DNA from: a virus
Reading direction: 5' to 3' (one strand)
Length of the DNA: 29,509 bases
Virus record (IMG/VR): IMGVR_UViG_3300002641_002026
In this document: positions 1-29,509 of the stretch, in pieces
Position numbering within the stretch: the stretch's first letter is position 1
Layout: each line of letters begins with the position of its first letter
Position numbers and translations under genes: made by a program
Notes under the pieces: generated by a model
Seen by the model: the letters and a program-made list of their open reading frames with translations, nothing else
Databases searched by the model: none
What the model was told of the DNA's origin: nothing

Positions 1-133
1 TACTTTATCAGCACTATCTTTAAATAATGTTTCAACACCACCTAGATTTTGTTCTAGGTCTGCATATGACTTAACTCCTGCACCAACTACACCTGCCAAT
101 GCACCTGTAATTCCTACAGTCACTGTGGCTAGT
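1..133. repeat. Terminal direct repeat, copy 1; identical to 29377-29509 (circular-assembly overlap)
   Basis: I compared the first 133 nt with the last 133 nt base by base and they are identical. Both lie inside one continuous minus-strand reading frame. Confidence 0.95.
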
Positions 134-564
134 TTTTTACTCACATTTAAAGCAACATCACCAACTTTAGATAGTCCATCTTTTACTTTAGAAAAATCTA
201 TACTAGATTGACTTTTTAATTCTTTATTCATACTTTTTAGTGCAGATTCACCTTTTGCTATTTCTACACTTAAGGCTCTATATTTTTCTTTTTGTTCATC
301 AGTTAAAGATGAATAACTTCCCATTTGTTTTTGAGCCTCTTTAAGAGTATTTAATCTATCAGTTGTTGCCTTTATATTATTTTTTAAAACATCTTGTTTT
401 TGAGATAATATTTCAGTATTTTTGGGGTCAAGTTTTAATGCTTGATTAAGTTGTCTTAATTCAGTATTTGTAGAATATACAACCTTATTAACATTTTTTA
501 AGGCATCTTCTAATTTTGATGTATTACCACCAATATCAATAGTTATACCTTTTATATTAGCCAT
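1..564 (-). CDS. Tail tape measure protein, exon 1, 5' part (continues across the circular junction into 29134-29376)
   Basis: ATG at 564-562 follows the RBS GGAGGTGAAACT. Translation reads MANIKGITIDIGGNTSKLEDALK...KKLATVTVGITGALAGVVGAGVKSYADLEQNLGGVETLFKDSADKV, in frame with ORF 29131-29499 through the 133-nt overlap. It is a coiled-coil-rich N-terminus typical of a tape measure protein (TMP). Confidence 0.9.
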   Translation of the reverse strand, partial: MANIKGITIDIGGNTSKLEDALKNVNKVVYSTNTELRQLNQALKLDPKNTEILSQKQDVLKNNIKATTDRLNTLKEAQKQMGSYSSLTDEQKEKYRALSVEIAKGESALKSMNKELKSQSSIDFSKVKDGLSKVGDVALNVSKKLATVTVGITGALAGVVGAGVKSYADLEQNLGGVETLFKDSADKV

Positions 565-2559: not shown

Positions 2560-3615
2560 TTATGCACTAACATTTAAAACTTGGAATGCAGTTGCATCAG
2601 CAAGTTTACCATCATAGATAGCAACACCTGAATAAGAGTAAGTATTATTACCGATATTATATTGAGTATGAATATTAATATCTTCTGCTAAATTACCAAC
2701 GAATTTTTTAGCATTTCCGAATGATACTTTATTAGCCTTATCACTTATAGATACTTCATATCCTAAAATGAAATATTTACCATTTTCACGAGTCACTAAT
2801 TCATTTTTAGATATATCTTGTAATGCTAAGATATTGTTATAGAATAATGATTTATTAACATACCATTTAGCACCATTTTCATATCCTGCAGGTAGTCCTG
2901 CTACTAAACTTCTTAATCCACTAGCATCTAATGAACCATTTACTGGAGTTCCAGTAGTTTCAATCTTATTTAAGATTTTACTTTCAATAGCATTAGCAAT
3001 TGAATCAGATAACATATCAGTTAACCATTCTTCAAATGCATCAATAGACATTGTTTTAACAGTATCACTGATAGTCACTAATTTAACTATTTCAGTACCT
3101 GCTAAATCAACTTTTAATAAAGGTACTTCTGATTCAGTAATAGATGCACCCTCTACATGGTCAGCACCATCAGTTCTAGTACCCTCTACATAGAATGATA
3201 CATTTCCTTTTACATTTAATAATGTAATTTCATCTAACATAGGTGCTTTTTTTACTACTTTCTCAAATATTGTATTTTGAGTTTCAGTTGGGATAGCACC
3301 ATCTTCTGCAACTAGAATATCTCTTTCTTCTTCGTTTAATTCTTTTCCCATTAACTTAGATAAGTATATATCTCTATACTCTTTTTTCTTTTCCATTTTT
3401 CTTTCCTCCATTTTAATTTCTTTTACTGCAGATTTTTCTTCTTTCATTTCTTCTGCAACTTCTTCATTTTTTTCTTGTTCCTCGATTTGAGTTTCTTCTT
3501 CGTTTAAAGCATCAACTTCTTTTTCAAGTTCTTCTACTTGTTCAGTTGTTTCTGCTTTATCTACTTCTTCACGAATTTCCACTTTACGAGCCTCAATTTC
3601 TTCTTTTCTTGTCAT
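2560..3615 (-). CDS. Major capsid protein, HK97 family, with an N-terminal E/K-rich delta (scaffold) domain
   Basis: 351 aa. The first ~80 aa form an E/K coiled coil, followed by an HK97-fold-like body. It follows the prohead protease and has the RBS GGAGG. Confidence 0.9.
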   Translation of the reverse strand: MTRKEEIEARKVEIREEVDKAETTEQVEELEKEVDALNEEETQIEEQEKNEEVAEEMKEEKSAVKEIKMEERKMEKKKEYRDIYLSKLMGKELNEEERDILVAEDGAIPTETQNTIFEKVVKKAPMLDEITLLNVKGNVSFYVEGTRTDGADHVEGASITESEVPLLKVDLAGTEIVKLVTISDTVKTMSIDAFEEWLTDMLSDSIANAIESKILNKIETTGTPVNGSLDASGLRSLVAGLPAGYENGAKWYVNKSLFYNNILALQDISKNELVTRENGKYFILGYEVSISDKANKVSFGNAKKFVGNLAEDINIHTQYNIGNNTYSYSGVAIYDGKLADATAFQVLNVSA

Positions 3616-14535: not shown

Positions 14536-15378
14536 TTAATACTTAATCCTTTCTAATTTGTTTTTCTTTTCTTTGTTAGATGTCATAGTATATATTGCAG
14601 TAGTTTTTATATCATTGTGTCCTAATATATCTCTTAACTCATCTAAATCAATTCCACTTTCTTTACATTTCTTAGCAAATAAATGTCGCCATGCATGAGG
14701 ATGTATTTTGTTAGGATTTATTTTTGCCGACTTAGATATTTTTTTTAATCTTCGCCAAATAGTACTATTATTTAACATCTGACCTTTTTTTACTGGACTA
14801 ACAAATATATAGCCACTCTTAATCTTATTTTCTTTACAATAATTCTTTAATTCTCTTCTTAATTCGTTAGTCATAATAAGAGTTCTTTCCTTACCTTTGT
14901 TGTAAGCACCTTTTATAAAATTACTATCTAGCGATTCTACTGTGAAATACTTTAATTCATCTATTCTTGCTCCTGAATGAGCAAATACTTTAATTATGTA
15001 ATACATATCCATCATATTTAATTTTTTTGCCCATCTTAGCATTCTTTTATGTTCTTGTTCCCATATAGGGTCATCAATAGATGTTTTTTGTTGTTCTTTA
15101 AATTTCTTTAATGTGCAATTATCTAATTTTAAATATTTTAAAAATTTATTAATTATAACAATGTATTTATTTTTTGATTTAACTTTAAATCCTTTTTCAG
15201 TTAAATCTTCTTTAAAATCTATCATCAGACTTTTTGTTATTTCAAATTCATCAGGCAAGAAGTCAATTAACTTATTAACTGCATTTCTATAATCAACTAT
15301 TGTTCTTCTTGATTTTTCATCTAATCTTTCAGTATCAATAAAATTATCTAATTCTTTTTTTATTGATTCTTTAGTCAT
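14536..15378 (-). CDS. Tyrosine site-specific recombinase (Xer/phage-integrase family)
   Basis: 280 aa. The catalytic set is readable: GARIDEL (Arg), HPHAWRH (His-x-x-Arg), LGHNDIKTT (His) and AIYT (Tyr). There is an N-terminal SAM-like core-binding domain. Confidence 0.88.
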   Translation of the reverse strand: MTKESIKKELDNFIDTERLDEKSRRTIVDYRNAVNKLIDFLPDEFEITKSLMIDFKEDLTEKGFKVKSKNKYIVIINKFLKYLKLDNCTLKKFKEQQKTSIDDPIWEQEHKRMLRWAKKLNMMDMYYIIKVFAHSGARIDELKYFTVESLDSNFIKGAYNKGKERTLIMTNELRRELKNYCKENKIKSGYIFVSPVKKGQMLNNSTIWRRLKKISKSAKINPNKIHPHAWRHLFAKKCKESGIDLDELRDILGHNDIKTTAIYTMTSNKEKKNKLERIKY

Positions 15379-19155: not shown

Positions 19156-20556
19156 ATGAATAAAATAATTAGAGTCGCAATTTACATTAGAGTATCTACT
19201 GATGAACAAGCAAAACATGGGTATTCTATTGATAGTCAAACTCAAAGATTAAAATCATATGCAAAGGAAAAAGGATATAAAATATATAAAATATATGCCG
19301 ATGAGGGAAAGTCTGCTCGAAGTAATATTTCGGCTAGAAAAGAACTATTAAATTTACTTAATGATGTTAGACAACATAAAGTTGATAGAATAATATTTTG
19401 GAGATTAGATAGATGGTTTAGAAATATTCAAGATTATTATAAAGTTCAAGAAATATTGGATAAAAATAATGTAGATTGGGAATGTACGGATGAAGAATAT
19501 AATACTACTACATCAAATGGAAGATTATATCTTAATATTAAATTATCTATTGCCCAAAACGAATCTGACCAAACAGGAGATAGAATTAGATTCAATTTTG
19601 AAAACATGATTAAAAATAAAAAAGCAATTATTGGAACAAGGAATTGTCCAATAGGATATAAGGTTGAGGGAACACCAAAAGATAAACATATAGTTAAGAA
19701 TCCTGATGATGAAGATTTTATTAATGACTTGTTTTCAAAATATATTGATACAATGAGTATAAATGCTACTACAAAGTTTTTATCAGAAAAATATCCTAAT
19801 TATCATTTTGTTTATAGAAGTATAAGGAATATATTAACTAATCCCCTCTTCTATGGTTGCTACAGAGATGTAGAAAATTATTGTGAACCATATTTAACAA
19901 AAAAAGAGTGGGATAATATTCAAAACATATTAAAAACTAAAAATCAAAAATGTAAAACAGGCAAAGTAAGAGATTATATTTTTACTGGTTTATTAACTTG
20001 CCCTGAATGTGGTCGAAGATTAGGTGCTAATGGAAGTGTAAGAACAAGACCAAATGGTGAAACTTATACTAGGGCTAATTATAGATGCCCAAAACACTGG
20101 ACTGATGGGCAGTGTTCAAATAAAAGAGTATTACAAGAAAATTTAATAGAGGAATGGTTATTAAATAACTATAAGCAATTATTACAGGAATATATATATC
20201 AAGTTGATGAAATTAAAGAACAAATTGAAAAGAAAGACAATTCAAAAAAAATTAAAAATTTAGAGGAGAAAGTTAGTAGATTAAATGAATTATATATAGA
20301 TGGATTAATTGATAGAAAGAAATATGATGAGGATAGATTAAGATATACTAATGAAATTAATAATTTAAAACAAACAATTGAAGATGTATCAAATGTGGAT
20401 ATTGAAAATATAAAAAATATTATTAATGACTCTACCCCATTAGAAATATATAAAGAATTATCTATTGCTAATAAAAGGGCTTTTTGGAATAGTTTTATTG
20501 ATAGAATAGTATTTTGTGGAAATAGAGATTATGATTTCATAGTCTATTTAAAATAA
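19156..20556 (+). CDS. Large serine recombinase (phage integrase)
   Basis: 466 aa. Resolvase catalytic N-domain VAIYIRVSTDEQ, a recombinase domain, a zinc ribbon CPECGRRL...YRCPKHW and a C-terminal coiled coil. Confidence 0.92.
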   Translation: MNKIIRVAIYIRVSTDEQAKHGYSIDSQTQRLKSYAKEKGYKIYKIYADEGKSARSNISARKELLNLLNDVRQHKVDRIIFWRLDRWFRNIQDYYKVQEILDKNNVDWECTDEEYNTTTSNGRLYLNIKLSIAQNESDQTGDRIRFNFENMIKNKKAIIGTRNCPIGYKVEGTPKDKHIVKNPDDEDFINDLFSKYIDTMSINATTKFLSEKYPNYHFVYRSIRNILTNPLFYGCYRDVENYCEPYLTKKEWDNIQNILKTKNQKCKTGKVRDYIFTGLLTCPECGRRLGANGSVRTRPNGETYTRANYRCPKHWTDGQCSNKRVLQENLIEEWLLNNYKQLLQEYIYQVDEIKEQIEKKDNSKKIKNLEEKVSRLNELYIDGLIDRKKYDEDRLRYTNEINNLKQTIEDVSNVDIENIKNIINDSTPLEIYKELSIANKRAFWNSFIDRIVFCGNRDYDFIVYLK

Positions 20557-24514: not shown

Positions 24515-26506
24515 CTATTCATCATCCCATGCACTTGATAATGGACTACCAAATGTAGGATATATTGTTTTTTTACCATCTTCTATGGTTTCTTCTACTG
24601 CTATTATTCTATATGTGGTGTAAACACCCCATTTTTCTTTTTTAATATTAACTATATCCCCTAAATTCCATTTTGTTTTATAATCTTGCTGAACTAATGC
24701 AGTCACTTCTAATTGAAATGTTCCATCAGATAGTTTCCCCTCGCCAACTGATTTTAATTTTTCACGATATGCACTATCTGACAAATCTTTATTACTCAAT
24801 GACTTTTGGTCACTAAATACTTCATATCTATCAAATCCAGTTGCTCCATCATTTACTTCAACAAGTACTCTATTATTATCTTCACCTGTTCCACCAACTA
24901 AAACATAACTTGCTTTAGTTTTTTTACTCATTACAAGTTTACCTTGCTCTATATTAAAATTATCATCACTAAATGAATATTCTTCATTTTCGTTTTGTTC
25001 CGATGACCTATCTACACCTTTCCAAACCTCAAACATATAAACTTTTGAATCAACATTAGGAACAACTCTTATTCCAATATTAGAATATTCTGCAAGTTTA
25101 CATAAATAATCATAAACATTTTTATAAGTGACTTGGAACTCAATATGAGGTGATGACATAGTGACAATTTCAGTTTCCCATTGTGAAGTTAATGGTGTCA
25201 TAGCATTTACTAAAGTATTCATACCCTCTATGGTATTTCCAATAAAATTAATTTTATTTTTAACAATTCTTCTTGATAATAAAGCACTTAAAAAGCGACC
25301 ACTGATAGTCACCTCTTCATTTGTTCCATTATCGCTATATTCTATTGTTTCAATAATTCCTGCCTCAGTATAATTATTTCTCATAACTATTACATCAGTT
25401 GCAATAAATTGTTTCATATAATCATTTACTGGCAAAACTATTTCAAATTCCCCTGCCTCAAAGTATTTTCTTAACCACCTTAATGAAATAAAATAATCAA
25501 CTATACCTAGCATATTTAATTCCTTATCAAAAAAGAATAAAGATGAATCGGCATCTCCATCTGCAGATAATTCTCTTGATACATCAAAATATCTTAAAGG
25601 TATTGTATGAGTAGTAGAATAATAATTACTTGTCATAACAAATCTATCATTATGAACACATAATCCATAAATTACACCTGAATGATTATTTGATATATCT
25701 TGCCAGTTAATGCCATCTATACTTTGCAGTATAGCACCATTATATCCACAGGCAATATACATACCATTTGCATATCTTGACCTCATTAATAATGAAGTAG
25801 ATTGAGAATTTTGGATAGTCCAATTTACACCATCAAAAGATGTTAATATTCTTCCTTTATCTCCTGTAATAACAAATTGTCCTTTTCCAAAATTAATACC
25901 ATATAAATATTCACTTACACCTGATTTTTGCTTTTTCCAAGATGATAGATTAGTTGATGTATATATTATTCCATTTCTTCCACAGGCAACATATAAACCT
26001 TTTGCATATGTCATATCTCTTAAAAATTGATTTACTTCACTCGTTTCATATATTCTTCTATTAATATTAATACAATTAGTAGTTTCATATATATTAAATT
26101 TAGAAAATTTATGATTCGGGTCATCTATATAATGACCTGTTGTACAAAAACCAAAAACAAATCTATTATTAATAAATTCTACATAATCTAATGAATATGG
26201 TGTTCTAAGTCCTGTATCTATGGTTTTATAGTTCCAGTGTACACCATCGGTTGAATAACATATATATGTTGGCAAATAATCATGAGGATGATTTGTTCCA
26301 CCAACTATCACGAATATTCCATTTCCATATGCTATATGCATTGGAACAATTTTATTATCATCTAATATATATTCAGTCCAATTTTCTAAATCTTCTGAAA
26401 CGCATACTTTTGCAGGTGATGAGGATAACATATAGTATTTATCATCAACTACTATAATATCTTTACCATTTCCATAGACTCTAGAATCTTTACCAATTAC
26501 TTTCAT
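24515..26506 (-). CDS. Baseplate/tail protein: N-terminal Asp-box (BNR-like) beta-propeller fused to a Sipho_Gp37-like domain
   Basis: The N-terminal ~320 aa contain repeated x-GNG-x-FV...S-x-DG-x-NW units. From about residue 322, LFFFDKELNMLGIVDYFISLRWLRKYFEAGEFEIVLP matches the usual N-terminus of Gp37-like proteins. Confidence 0.7.
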   Translation of the reverse strand: MKVIGKDSRVYGNGKDIIVVDDKYYMLSSSPAKVCVSEDLENWTEYILDDNKIVPMHIAYGNGIFVIVGGTNHPHDYLPTYICYSTDGVHWNYKTIDTGLRTPYSLDYVEFINNRFVFGFCTTGHYIDDPNHKFSKFNIYETTNCININRRIYETSEVNQFLRDMTYAKGLYVACGRNGIIYTSTNLSSWKKQKSGVSEYLYGINFGKGQFVITGDKGRILTSFDGVNWTIQNSQSTSLLMRSRYANGMYIACGYNGAILQSIDGINWQDISNNHSGVIYGLCVHNDRFVMTSNYYSTTHTIPLRYFDVSRELSADGDADSSLFFFDKELNMLGIVDYFISLRWLRKYFEAGEFEIVLPVNDYMKQFIATDVIVMRNNYTEAGIIETIEYSDNGTNEEVTISGRFLSALLSRRIVKNKINFIGNTIEGMNTLVNAMTPLTSQWETEIVTMSSPHIEFQVTYKNVYDYLCKLAEYSNIGIRVVPNVDSKVYMFEVWKGVDRSSEQNENEEYSFSDDNFNIEQGKLVMSKKTKASYVLVGGTGEDNNRVLVEVNDGATGFDRYEVFSDQKSLSNKDLSDSAYREKLKSVGEGKLSDGTFQLEVTALVQQDYKTKWNLGDIVNIKKEKWGVYTTYRIIAVEETIEDGKKTIYPTFGSPLSSAWDDE

Positions 26507-26519
26507 CTAATCACCATCC

Positions 26520-27398
26520 TTAAACTGCCTCATAATAGTTATAATAACTAATAGAACAATCTAAATTTGATAAGCCACTATCAGCATTTGTCACATATTT
26601 ATTTACACCATTTGGTGCTTGTAAGAATTTAGTACCAAATACTAATGCATTAGTTATGTTTGTTTCGACACCATTTGAATCAATATGAGTAATACTTTTT
26701 TCATTATTATATGTTGTGACTACTATTTGTTCTCCTAATTCCAATGTGTAATTTAATCTCATAATTTCATTTGTCTTGGTATTCTTTAATGATGGATTTA
26801 TTACTTCGCCATTTGCAGTAAATGTAATAGTTAATCCATATGGAATATGTGAATTATTTTCTATTTCTATAGCAGTCATACTATTTTTACGACCAAACTC
26901 AATACCTGTTCCATCAGGTATTTCTAATGGAAATTTGAATAACTTATCCCAATTTTGAAGAGTTGCTATTGTTTCTTCTGAATCCATAAAATATGGGCTA
27001 GGACATAATAAATTAATTGTTGCATAAACAAAATTTGCTTTTCTTACCAAATTAACATTTTCAACATAATAATTTATTTTTCTTTCAATATCTCCCTCAT
27101 AATAAAAAAGAGTTCCGTGGTCTTTTAATGGAAATATATTATATAATTGTTGCTTTCTTGTAATTAAATCAGCACCATCTTTAAATGCTATAACTAAATT
27201 AATGTTTCTTTGATTAACTGATGTTCCTATGTACGATACACCTACACCAAATGCACTTTTTATTGTGGCTACATTTCCATCATAACTATGTATTCCTGAA
27301 TAAGAATTAAGGTAGAAAGGAAAAGAATAACCAAATTCTAATTTATAACCATAACTATTTCTACAAATAATTTTTTTAGTTTTTGAAAAATAAGCCAT
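26520..27398 (-). CDS. Distal tail protein (Dit, siphovirus tail component)
   Basis: 292 aa, directly after the TMP with an ATGA-type overlap. The size and beta-rich sequence are typical of Dit. Confidence 0.8.
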   Translation of the reverse strand: MAYFSKTKKIICRNSYGYKLEFGYSFPFYLNSYSGIHSYDGNVATIKSAFGVGVSYIGTSVNQRNINLVIAFKDGADLITRKQQLYNIFPLKDHGTLFYYEGDIERKINYYVENVNLVRKANFVYATINLLCPSPYFMDSEETIATLQNWDKLFKFPLEIPDGTGIEFGRKNSMTAIEIENNSHIPYGLTITFTANGEVINPSLKNTKTNEIMRLNYTLELGEQIVVTTYNNEKSITHIDSNGVETNITNALVFGTKFLQAPNGVNKYVTNADSGLSNLDCSISYYNYYEAV

Positions 27399-28861
27399 TA
27401 TCTAATCCCTCCATACTTTAATTTATATAATTCATATTCTTGTCTTAATAATCTAACATTCTCTGATGGAGATGTGTATTTAGAATTATTATTAATAATA
27501 GCAGTAAATCCATCTTTACCATCATTACCACTAGCATTATCTTGATTTTGTCTATCTAGTAATAAACTATTAGCATTAGGATTAACCATAGGATTAAGTG
27601 AGTTTTGAACACCATAATTAAGTGTTTTCATTGCTTTAGTAGTATTTCCTACTAAATCACTAAAAGATAGTTTATTTGCCATATTTTGAGCCATTTTATC
27701 AGTTGCATTTTCTAATAGATAACTAGATTTATTTATTCCTTTAACCATTCCCTTAATCATATCAGGCATCCAAGTTTCATAATCACGAAGTGGTCCAATA
27801 TCAGGTCTTGAGAAATGTAAGAAACTTTTTATCTTATCTGCAACACCTTTTACTGCATCTTTTACTTTCCCTATCATTTTTTTGATACCATCAATAAATC
27901 CTTGTATCATATCTTTACCCCACTCTAGGGCTTTTGAACCAAGATTACCAATAGTATTTTTTATACTATCTACTATTTTTCCCATCCATTCTCCAATTTT
28001 GCCAAAATATGTCATTATACCCTCACCTAATGATAAAAGTATTCTGCCACCAGCCTCTACTATTTTTGGCAAACTATTTATTACTGCCTCCACAATTTTT
28101 ATAATTAATGTAGGAATAGTTTCCATTAATTTTTCAATAGTGTCAGGGTCAGTCAATCCCTCAATTAATCCGATGATTAGTTGGATTCCAGCATCTATAA
28201 TTAAATCAAGATTGTCGACTAAAACTTCTACTATTTTTAATACACACTCAATTATTTGAGGAATCAAAGTTGGTAGGCTCTCGGCGATGCCTTTGGCAAG
28301 GGCGATGATTAACTGTAAGCCTAATTCGATGATTTTTGGGAGGTTAGTAGTAAAAAATTCTACTATCTTATTTACAAGTAATGTTAGTGTTTTTTGAAGT
28401 CCACTTAGGTCTTGAGTGACCATATTTAACAAACTATCTATCATATTGCTGACTGCATCCAAAAGTTGTGGAACAAGGTCGACCAATATTTTTGCCACCT
28501 TAGGCAATAATTTTTCAACTAGAGTCACAATTCCACTTAGTATATTTGGAGCAAGTTTAACAATAGCATCACTTACATTACTTAAAACATTAGTAATTGA
28601 ATCTGCTAAATCTTCAGCACTACCACTACCATTTAAGAAATTATCAAATGATGCTTTCATTGAATTAATTGAACCACTTATTGTCTTTTCTGCCTCTTCT
28701 GCAGTAGTACCAGTGACACCTAAATTTTCTTGTATTGCATGGATGGCATTGTATACATCACTTAAATTGGATATATCATAATGTACACCAGTAAGTTTTT
28801 CAGCATCAGATAATAATCGTTGCATTTCAGTTTTCGTACCACCATAACCTAATTTTAAATT
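27398..28861 (-). CDS. Tail tape measure protein, exon 2
   Basis: It begins NLKLGYGGTKTEMQRLLSDAEKLTGV..., which continues the conserved TMP motif interrupted at 29134. A long helical repeat region follows. The ORF-track start (GTG at 28873) lies inside the intron. Confidence 0.88.
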   Translation of the reverse strand, partial: NLKLGYGGTKTEMQRLLSDAEKLTGVHYDISNLSDVYNAIHAIQENLGVTGTTAEEAEKTISGSINSMKASFDNFLNGSGSAEDLADSITNVLSNVSDAIVKLAPNILSGIVTLVEKLLPKVAKILVDLVPQLLDAVSNMIDSLLNMVTQDLSGLQKTLTLLVNKIVEFFTTNLPKIIELGLQLIIALAKGIAESLPTLIPQIIECVLKIVEVLVDNLDLIIDAGIQLIIGLIEGLTDPDTIEKLMETIPTLIIKIVEAVINSLPKIVEAGGRILLSLGEGIMTYFGKIGEWMGKIVDSIKNTIGNLGSKALEWGKDMIQGFIDGIKKMIGKVKDAVKGVADKIKSFLHFSRPDIGPLRDYETWMPDMIKGMVKGINKSSYLLENATDKMAQNMANKLSFSDLVGNTTKAMKTLNYGVQNSLNPMVNPNANSLLLDRQNQDNASGNDGKDGFTAIINNNSKYTSPSENVRLLRQEYELYKLKYGGIR

Positions 28862-29133
28862 CCTTGTATTCACATAAGGTCGTTAATCTTATGCCGTTCT
28901 CTTATGAACTGCTATATATTTCTATATAGAGTAGACTATATCTTCATCTCTTTTGAGAGCCTCGCACTTCCACTCACTTGAGTGTACTCTACTCACTTCC
29001 AATATATAAAATATTGTGTTTTCGATAGTCGTTGAACCTTTCTATTTCTAGACTTGGATGCTGATTATCTTCAACATTACTTGTTAAGACTTCCCAGCAA
29101 TTCACGAGGTTTTAGTTGAACTATTTTTAGTTA
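28862..29133 (-). ncRNA. Group I self-splicing intron (IA-like, no internal ORF)
   Basis: P1 pairs GUUGGAU with GUUCAAC, with U.G at the 5' splice site. The cores are P AAUUGCUGGGAAG, Q AAUCAGCAUCC, R GGUUCAACGACUAUCG and S AAGAUAUAGUCUAC. The terminal nucleotide is G at 28862, and the exon junction is in frame. Confidence 0.85.
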
Positions 29134-29509
29134 ATCCAACATAGTATAGTTTTGTTTTGCAAAACCTTGATATGCAGTTTGTATTGATGACATATCAGTA
29201 CCAAACTTATTAGCATTATCTGACATATCTCTGAATGCCATATCAGCGACATCGGCTGCCTTTGAAGTATCTCCACCTAATGATTGTAAAAGCGATGCAC
29301 TAAATGATGTGACACCAGCCATATATTCATTAGCACTAACACCTGCAGTCTTGTAAGCATTTTTGGCATTTTGAACTACTTTATCAGCACTATCTTTAAA
29401 TAATGTTTCAACACCACCTAGATTTTGTTCTAGGTCTGCATATGACTTAACTCCTGCACCAACTACACCTGCCAATGCACCTGTAATTCCTACAGTCACT
29501 GTGGCTAGT
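29134..29509 (-). CDS. Tail tape measure protein, exon 1, 3' part (29377-29509 duplicates 1-133)
   Basis: ...GGVETLFKDSADKVVQNAKNAYKTAGVSANEYMAGVTSF...QTAYQGFAKQNYTMLD, followed by TAA, which is the first codon of the intron. Confidence 0.9.
29377..29509. repeat. Terminal direct repeat, copy 2
   Basis: Identical to 1-133. Confidence 0.95.

Follow-up and report, generated by a model that had tools for sequence, protein, structure and literature searches.

The tail region of a viral contig from IMG/VR (record IMGVR_UViG_3300002641_002026; the whole stretch of 29,509 nt is referred to as the window) raises the question of why the reading frame of its tape measure gene stops inside a conserved motif and resumes 272 nt later on the same strand. 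A first-pass annotation, made from the sequence, had proposed a group I intron lacking an ORF. Alternatively, the 272 nt could be an ordinary spacer between two genes, the relic of an intron, or an assembly error. We conclude that positions 29133-28862 on the minus strand are very probably an ORF-less group I intron of subgroup IA in the tape measure gene, with splicing predicted from the sequence.

The tape measure gene and its interruption

The window is a circular assembly whose first 133 nt are identical to its last 133 nt (1-133 and 29377-29509), giving a unique length of 29,376 bp, and the tape measure gene crosses its artificial ends. The right end of the window holds only 125 codons of exon 1; because the assembly is circular, the exon wraps to 564..1 and comprises 269 codons. 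Its 5' part (1-564, minus strand) starts with an ATG at 564, preceded by GGAGG, and joins position 29376 on the circle, while its 3' part (29134-29376, minus strand, 243 nt) ends CAA AAC TAT ACT ATG TTG GAT. Read around the circle, exon 1 is translated as MANIKGITID...KKLATVTVGITG, in agreement with the N-termini of the intron-less homologues P0001 and P0002, and ends ...YQGFAKQNYTMLD before running into a UAA at 29133-29131. This stop, in frame directly after the 5' splice site, forms the first three bases of the intron. Exon 2 (27398-28861, minus strand, 487 codons and a stop) starts AAU UUA AAA UUA GGU UAU GGU GGU (NLKLGYGG), and its translation from 28861 begins NLKLGYGGTKTEMQRLL.

Excision of 29133-28862 fuses GAU/AAU in frame (a slash marks a splice junction throughout). 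The predicted ligated junction reads ACTATGTTGGAT/AATTTAAAATTAGGTTATGG, and the two exons together encode 756 aa (269 + 487), the figure that the first-pass annotation had given; both the circular reading and the existence of intron-less homologues of 756 aa confirm this length. With a U required upstream of the 5' splice site and a G at the end of the intron, no junction other than GAU/AAU recreates the motif. The intron does end in such a G, the omega G at 28862 that precedes the 3' splice site, and all relatives inserted at this site and at the site 15 nt downstream that is described below likewise have G as their final base at the junction that restores the frame.

The spliced product was compared with 8,000 scored homologues, the best of which (approximately 40) are 755-760 aa long and share 79-93% identity over 100% of the query. 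P0001 and P0002, both of 756 aa and 93% identity, have the motif ...QNYTMLDNLKLGYGGT... in one piece and are unbroken across the junction (QNYTMLDNLKLGYGGTKTEMQRLL; in a longer stretch, ...AYQGFAKQNYTMLDNLKLGYG...). After the motif P0002 continues with GTKTEMQRLL, as does the window, and P0001 with ANKTEMQRLL. The motif is likewise contiguous in 365 of the 379 phage records that hold the domain. Of the 79 genome loci nearest to the window, two have another middle domain; the remaining 77 carry the domain, in every case without a break at the junction. The contiguity of the motif in other tape measure proteins, which had been stated in the first pass, is borne out by alignment with intron-less homologues.

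The 756-aa protein matched PHROG 58 (tail length tape measure protein) in one stretch over residues 1-732 (E 4e-101). The position of the gene also fits a tape measure gene, as it lies between the major tail gene (652-1221) and Dit (26520-27398), with a minor tail gene at 24515-26506. Only 88 nt (564-652) separate the major tail gene from the tape measure start codon, and, unusually for a siphovirus, this gap is devoid of a tail assembly chaperone pair.

The phage is a temperate siphovirus-type phage with a 29.4-kb circular contig of 26.6% GC. Its genes include a terminase, portal, capsid, LexA-like repressor, serine recombinase and a GH25-CW7-LysM lysin, and a cos-type HNH gene adjoins the terminase genes. 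Both a tyrosine recombinase (14536-15378, minus strand) and a large serine recombinase (19156-20556, plus strand) are encoded. The nearest intron-less prophages, with 94% and 88% tape-measure identity, are in genomes named "uncultured Bacilli bacterium" from rabbit gut and from Hadza human gut.

Ribozyme structure and covariation

The 272-nt intron matched Rfam family RF00028 (Intron_gpI) at 28912-29181 on the minus strand with 67.4 bits (E 4.7e-17) when a 501-nt slice (28750-29250) was the query. The match spans the full model (positions 1-253 of 253), and the gathering score of the family is 50. The outcome of this search, which had been proposed in the first pass, depended on the length of the query: no Rfam intron match was obtained with a 10-kb slice, nor with the whole window at either gathering or E-value thresholds. 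The misses on the longer queries are a filter artefact and not an absence, as the speed filters of Infernal lose the match in DNA of 26.6% GC. Because of the same effect, Rfam is unable to exclude further introns in the window. An nhmmer profile of the 3' domain of the intron family matched only the 28862-29133 intron, revealing no second family member in the window, and the large terminase, portal, capsid and lysin genes appear intact. The minimum free energy of the intron lies below that of its shuffles (z = -3.2). As the first-pass annotation had noted, the intron carries no endonuclease ORF; the longest ORF inside it encodes 9 aa.

Gene callers report two ORFs at this locus, one of 269 aa and one of 491 aa starting at a GTG inside the intron, an outcome foreseen in the first pass, and the GenBank records of relatives are annotated likewise. 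These annotations would suit a tape measure that is naturally made of two genes with the 272 nt as an intergenic spacer. But this spacer is a full-length group I ribozyme by RF00028, and the interruption lies midway through a motif found unbroken in 365 of the 379 phage records and in all 77 domain-bearing genome loci. The GTG, moreover, has no ribosome-binding site and lies within the last 12 nt of the intron, just downstream of P9.2. We consider a natural pair of genes highly improbable and a single gene interrupted by an intron the better reading.

We then drew a secondary structure by hand from the window and examined it in related introns, which were gathered by three routes: GenBank phage similarity, exon-2 ORFs among the protein hits, and the exact 36-mer spanning P9 and P9.1. 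Twelve tape-measure introns, each with 9 nt of the 5' exon, were aligned with MAFFT (alignment A1) after removal of the HNH inserts of relatives by anchor-based trimming. The drawn structure consists of P1, P3, P4, P5, P6, P6a, P7 (the pseudoknot), P7.2, P9, P9.1 and P9.2; P8 and P5a were excluded from the pair count because the register of these helices varies between subgroups in the MAFFT columns. In this structure 98.8% of 651 cells are paired, compared with a shuffle mean of 87.1% that none of 500 shuffles raised to the observed value, and with 31-44% in slid controls. Changes on both sides of a pair occur in 28 of the 56 pairs (shuffle mean 13, reached by 0/500; slid controls 2-7), although some compensatory cells are not independent events, as the 12 sequences include close relatives. 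The invariance of P9 and P9.1 is built into the search design. A wider alignment of 45 distinct 3' domains likewise supports P7.1, P7.2, P8 and P9.2.

All the elements quoted in the first pass, namely P1, the P, Q, R and S cores, P3, the UAA and the last G, were recovered on the minus strand where it had placed them. P1 is formed by the last 7 nt of exon 1, GUUGGAU (29134-29140), and the internal guide GUUCAAC (29115-29121), with a U.G wobble at the splice site. This wobble, a feature claimed from the start, is present in 12/12 related introns, and four of the seven P1 pairs show compensatory changes. P3 pairs CCUCG (29105-29109) with CGAGG (28960-28964); all five pairs are 100% paired and three of them compensatory. 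The P core (AAUUGCUGGGAAG, 29102-29090) and Q core (AAUCAGCAUCC, 29066-29056) contribute to the P4-P5 domain (29056-29099), which in the Rfam alignment comprises P4 (UGCUGG with UCAGCA), P5 (UCUU with AAGA) and a P5a hairpin. P4 is 100% paired with compensatory changes in 5/6 pairs, and P5 is approximately 96% paired.

P6 and P6a occupy 29037-29057, P6 pairing CC with GG (2/2 compensatory, 100% paired) and P6a forming UCUA-GAAA-UAGA (3/4 compensatory, approximately 96% paired). Two GAAA-capped hairpins had been assigned to P6 and P9; both are present, and the one assigned to P6 is P6a in the drawn structure. The P6a loop is where the HNH gene is located in the relatives proPhi7, Javan520, L037, L044 and L057.

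P7 joins GACUA (29026-29030), inside the R core (GGUUCAACGACUAUCG, 29038-29023), to UAGUC (28934-28938), inside the S core (AAGAUAUAGUCUAC, 28944-28931). This pseudoknot helix is absent from the Rfam model. As had been claimed for the window, it is perfectly paired, and it is invariant both in the 12 sequences and in the 45 family members. Between P7 and the 3' strand of P3, the region 28971-29025 forms P7.1 (UC with GA plus CAAUAU-UUUAU-AUAUUG) and P7.2 (CACUC-AAGU-GAGUG). P7.2 is 100% paired with compensatory changes in 4/5 pairs, and the P7.1 stems covary across the 45 family members. The extra hairpins described as IA-like in the first pass are therefore real, and they assign the intron to subgroup IA, a level at which IA1 and IA2 are not separated.

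The P8 hairpin, UCUC-AAAA-GAGA at 28947-28958, was read from the sequence; in relatives it is swapped for other complementary sequences, and the 45-sequence alignment backs it. Its UCUC and GAGA strands did not feature in the first-pass list of helices. At the 3' end, P9 (CUAUAUA-GAAA-UAUAUAG), P9.1 (GUUC with GAAC) and P9.2 (GCAUAAG-AUUAACGAC-CUUAUGU) fill 28872-28929, and six of the seven P9.2 pairs are compensatory. The P9.2 loop, (A)UUAACGAC at 28879-28887, is near-invariant in the 45 family members, in contrast to its freely covarying stem. The AACGAC of the J6/7-P7 core recurs in this loop, which may take part in a tertiary contact. By inspection, P10 is weak: exon positions +2 to +5 (AUUU) are able to pair with the AAAU just 5' of the guide, forming a helix of 4 bp shifted by one base relative to the splice site.

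Splicing of this intron would proceed as follows. The ribozyme would fold in the late transcript, with P1 formed between the last seven exon bases, GUUGGAU, and the internal guide GUUCAAC. The first attack, by an external guanosine, would fall after the wobble-paired U, and the second, by the freed exon, after the terminal G at 28862. This would join GAU/AAU and restore ...YTMLD-NLKLGYGGT... of the 756-aa tape measure protein. In unspliced RNA, translation would end at the UAA that constitutes the first three intron bases.

Insertion sites, guide changes and possible spread

The window intron is a member of a widespread family of subgroup IA introns in phages. The 36-mer spanning P9 and P9.1 is found exactly in 60 IMG/VR loci, and members of the family occur in many phage genes, including the staphylococcal amidase gene of IME1367_01. 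Within the tape measure gene we found four occupied sites within the 43 nt encoding QGFAKQNYTMLDNLKLG/Y. These are the Q-G/F site (GGCU/UU; L008), a site within the Met codon (AU/G; Javan271 intron 1 and L043), the D/N site (GAU/AAU) and the G/Y site (GGU/UAU). The D/N site is occupied in the window and in L005, L042, L060 and L148-L166. Its 23 copies come from different assemblies and represent nine distinct sequences; none has an ORF, all being 245-272 nt long and too short for one. Most family members in the same motif lie 15 nt downstream at the G/Y site, and their P6a loop often carries an HNH endonuclease. This site is occupied in proPhi7, Javan520, Javan271 (intron 2) and at least a dozen IMG/VR contigs, with introns that carry either an HNH gene in the P6a loop or none.

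The number of copies bears on the assembly of the window, a metagenome-type circular contig with a k-mer-sized overlap of 133 nt, in which foreign sequence could have been joined into the gene to form a chimera. But 22 further contigs, from independent samples and built by independent assemblers (Logan, ENA and IMG/VR), have the same intron at the same site. An assembly artefact is thereby effectively refuted, and we treat the intron as a genuine part of the phage genome.

The GenBank relatives proPhi7 (MN534320), Javan520 (MK448972) and Javan271 (MK448723) are 75-86% identical to the window intron in the 3' half, have an identical 36-mer from P9 to P9.1 and are inserted in the same motif. They differ from it by insertion 15 nt downstream (NLKLG/YGG, GGU/UAU). 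ProPhi7 and Javan520 differ further by a gene for an HNH protein of approximately 186 aa in the P6a loop, and Javan271 by having two introns with a 22-nt exon between them. In these records the introns are unannotated, save for one Javan271 HNH product note ('Phage intron'), and the tape-measure halves are separate CDSs. In proPhi7 (L001, 136-1320 and 1677-5127) the tape measure is annotated as two genes around an 'HNH endonuclease', which corresponds to the G/Y-site intron, and an IS-type transposase lies just upstream. In Javan271 (L002, 1920-3133) the two introns are in tandem: the HNH-bearing one follows ACGAU, and after the 22-nt exon GUUAGAUAACUUAAAACUGGGU comes an ORF-less one at GGU/UAC; separate 'minor tail protein' genes are annotated in this record.

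Two other inserts in the same region were observed. The L008 family member (2714-3012) sits at GGCU/UUGCU, between the Gly and Phe of YQGF, and has approximately 40 extra nt near its 5' end; no convincing P1 could be drawn for it. A close relative of the window phage (L006, 2762-3003, and L007, 1945-2186) has a different, unrelated 242-nt insert at the G/Y site, with a convincing P1 (ACUCGGU with GCCGAGU) and a P7-like pairing (GCAUA with UAUGC). This insert had no Rfam match at E 0.01, and by eye it looks like a different group I intron.

The exon and the guide vary together. At the D/N site the exon is GUUGGAU and the guide GUUCAAC. At the G/Y site, where the guide changes match synonymous exon changes, the corresponding pairs are AAUUGGGU and GCUCAAUU in L014, ACUGGGU and GCUCAGU in proPhi7, and ACUAGGU and GCCUAGU in L033. 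AUG-UUG-GAU is present in all 23 D/N-site alleles. Of 76 alleles without an intron, only three use UUG for Leu and 54 use GAU for Asp; in the closest intron-less relatives the Leu codon is CUU. Either the D/N exon has been selected for P1 pairing or it travelled with the intron; under both readings P1 acts as a working constraint.

This constraint is relevant to whether the intron still splices. A decayed relic that no longer splices would leave the tape measure gene broken and the prophage defective in its tail. In the usual cycle of invasion and decay, a cycle cited in PMC2504315, the endonuclease gene is lost before the intron itself, and the intron studied here has no endonuclease gene; its weak P10 would also suit decay. 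But its core helices are all intact, its covariance-model score is well over the gathering score, and the nine distinct D/N-site variants preserve pairing through compensatory changes. Moreover, UUG-GAU is kept for P1 in all intron-bearing alleles, and both exons are open and 93% identical to intact homologues. We regard a relic as unlikely, and an intron that is still able to splice as the better explanation. The contig itself could be a defective prophage, in which case splicing would be without importance.

We also compared introns between sites. The L060 (D/N) and L014 (G/Y) introns align without gaps at 86.5% identity, and the D/N and L014 guides differ at exactly two positions, which are complementary to the differences between their targets (AUGUUGGAU versus AAAUUGGGU). 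These sequences make it plausible that two substitutions shifted the intron between similar targets lying 15 nt from each other, a shift that could have gone in either direction. Within the D/N site, the intron of IMG/VR contig L042 is identical to that of the window (272/272 nt) and the L005 copy matches at 271/272 nt, while the flanking exons of L042 and the window share 78-83% identity in the first 120 nt, with differences from approximately 10 nt off the junction. This suggests that an intron lacking its own nuclease recently moved laterally from one diverged gene to another, and that co-conversion extended over a very short tract. Such transfer may have occurred by recombination through the conserved motif, by a nuclease acting in trans or by reverse splicing.

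Taken further, the motif would be a hot spot at which an endonuclease-less lineage moved 15 nt (UUGGGU to UUGGAU, by two guide substitutions) and still spreads horizontally without its own nuclease. We put this forward tentatively, as a scenario that is rather doubtful in its full form. If true, this would indicate reverse splicing, recombination with very short tracts or the action of a nuclease provided in trans as the route of spread. Occupation of one site by an intron might, moreover, shield the gene against the endonuclease encoded by an intron at the adjacent site.

Comparison with known phage introns

Classical phage IA introns, such as those of T4 td, nrdB and nrdD, the SPO1 DNA polymerase gene and Twort orf142, share a self-splicing IA core with P7.1 and P7.2. 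They lie at highly conserved codons of conserved genes, are sporadic among close relatives, and most are in genes for nucleotide metabolism or replication; their splicing has been demonstrated experimentally. In contrast, the window intron sits in a structural gene and its splicing is predicted.

Lysin genes split by introns are known from phages of staphylococci and streptococci, among them those of staphylococcal phages 85, X2 and G1 (PMC9430571). The endolysin intron of staphylococcal IME1367_01 belongs to the same family as the window intron (nhmmer E 8.7e-34 for the 3' domain; identical 36-mer), but differs in its host gene, an amidase, in an ORF near its 5' end and in its guide sequence. 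Group I introns have also been described in capsid and minor tail genes of cluster J mycobacteriophages, where they are spliced in late expression (PMC3706429). Like the window intron these are in late structural genes, and their tail-gene copies lack endonucleases, whereas their hosts (those of high-GC actinobacteriophages) and genes are different; the likeness is judged by description.

The closest precedent is the description of TMP-IVS1/2/3, group I introns of subgroups IA1 and IA2 at three tape measure sites of prophages in the Bacillus cereus group (Tourasse and Kolsto 2008; PMC2504315). Some copies are without a complete endonuclease gene, and changes in P1 and the guide have fitted homologous introns to different sites (PMC2504315). 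The window intron resembles them in its location in the tape measure gene of a Firmicutes prophage, in its subgroup, in the use of several sites per gene, in the occurrence of endonuclease-less copies and in the adjustment of P1 between sites. Compared by description, it appears to differ in insertion site and it differs in host, the hosts here being uncultured gut Bacilli, Streptococcus and Lactococcus. The tape-measure domain of the B. cereus prophages probably differs from that of the window; Bacillus does not appear among the ten commonest organism names in the 379 motif-bearing phage records, a list that omits nine minor names. A literature search for this tape-measure site or for introns of these phages found no specific paper, and the terms 'tape measure', 'intron' and 'HNH' are absent from the proPhi7 paper. 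The insertion site is apparently new, while the kind of intron is known from the B. cereus work. The novelty suggested in the first pass is accordingly lower, given the 2008 report of such introns in the tape measure genes of prophages (PMC2504315) and the presence in GenBank of HNH-bearing relatives in the same motif.

The finding also has consequences for annotation. Automatic pipelines split the tape measure gene into two ORFs, as happened in the GenBank relatives, so that the length of the tape measure, which sets tail length, is misread and a phage may be called defective when it is intact. Similarly, in AT-rich DNA a clear group I intron can escape a covariance-model scan of the whole contig and yet be detected in a short slice. 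Here, where the first-pass annotation had named a missing covariance-model hit as grounds for abandoning the intron, a routine Rfam run would have led to the wrong rejection of a true finding.

The window intron leaves the known picture of phage group I introns unchanged, and only the hot spot and the apparent spread without a nuclease go slightly beyond what was described in 2008. It contributes a well-populated example, comprising at least 23 copies at one site, dozens at the neighbouring one and 60 IMG/VR contigs across the family, of phage group I introns that target the most conserved codons of conserved genes and are retargetable through P1.
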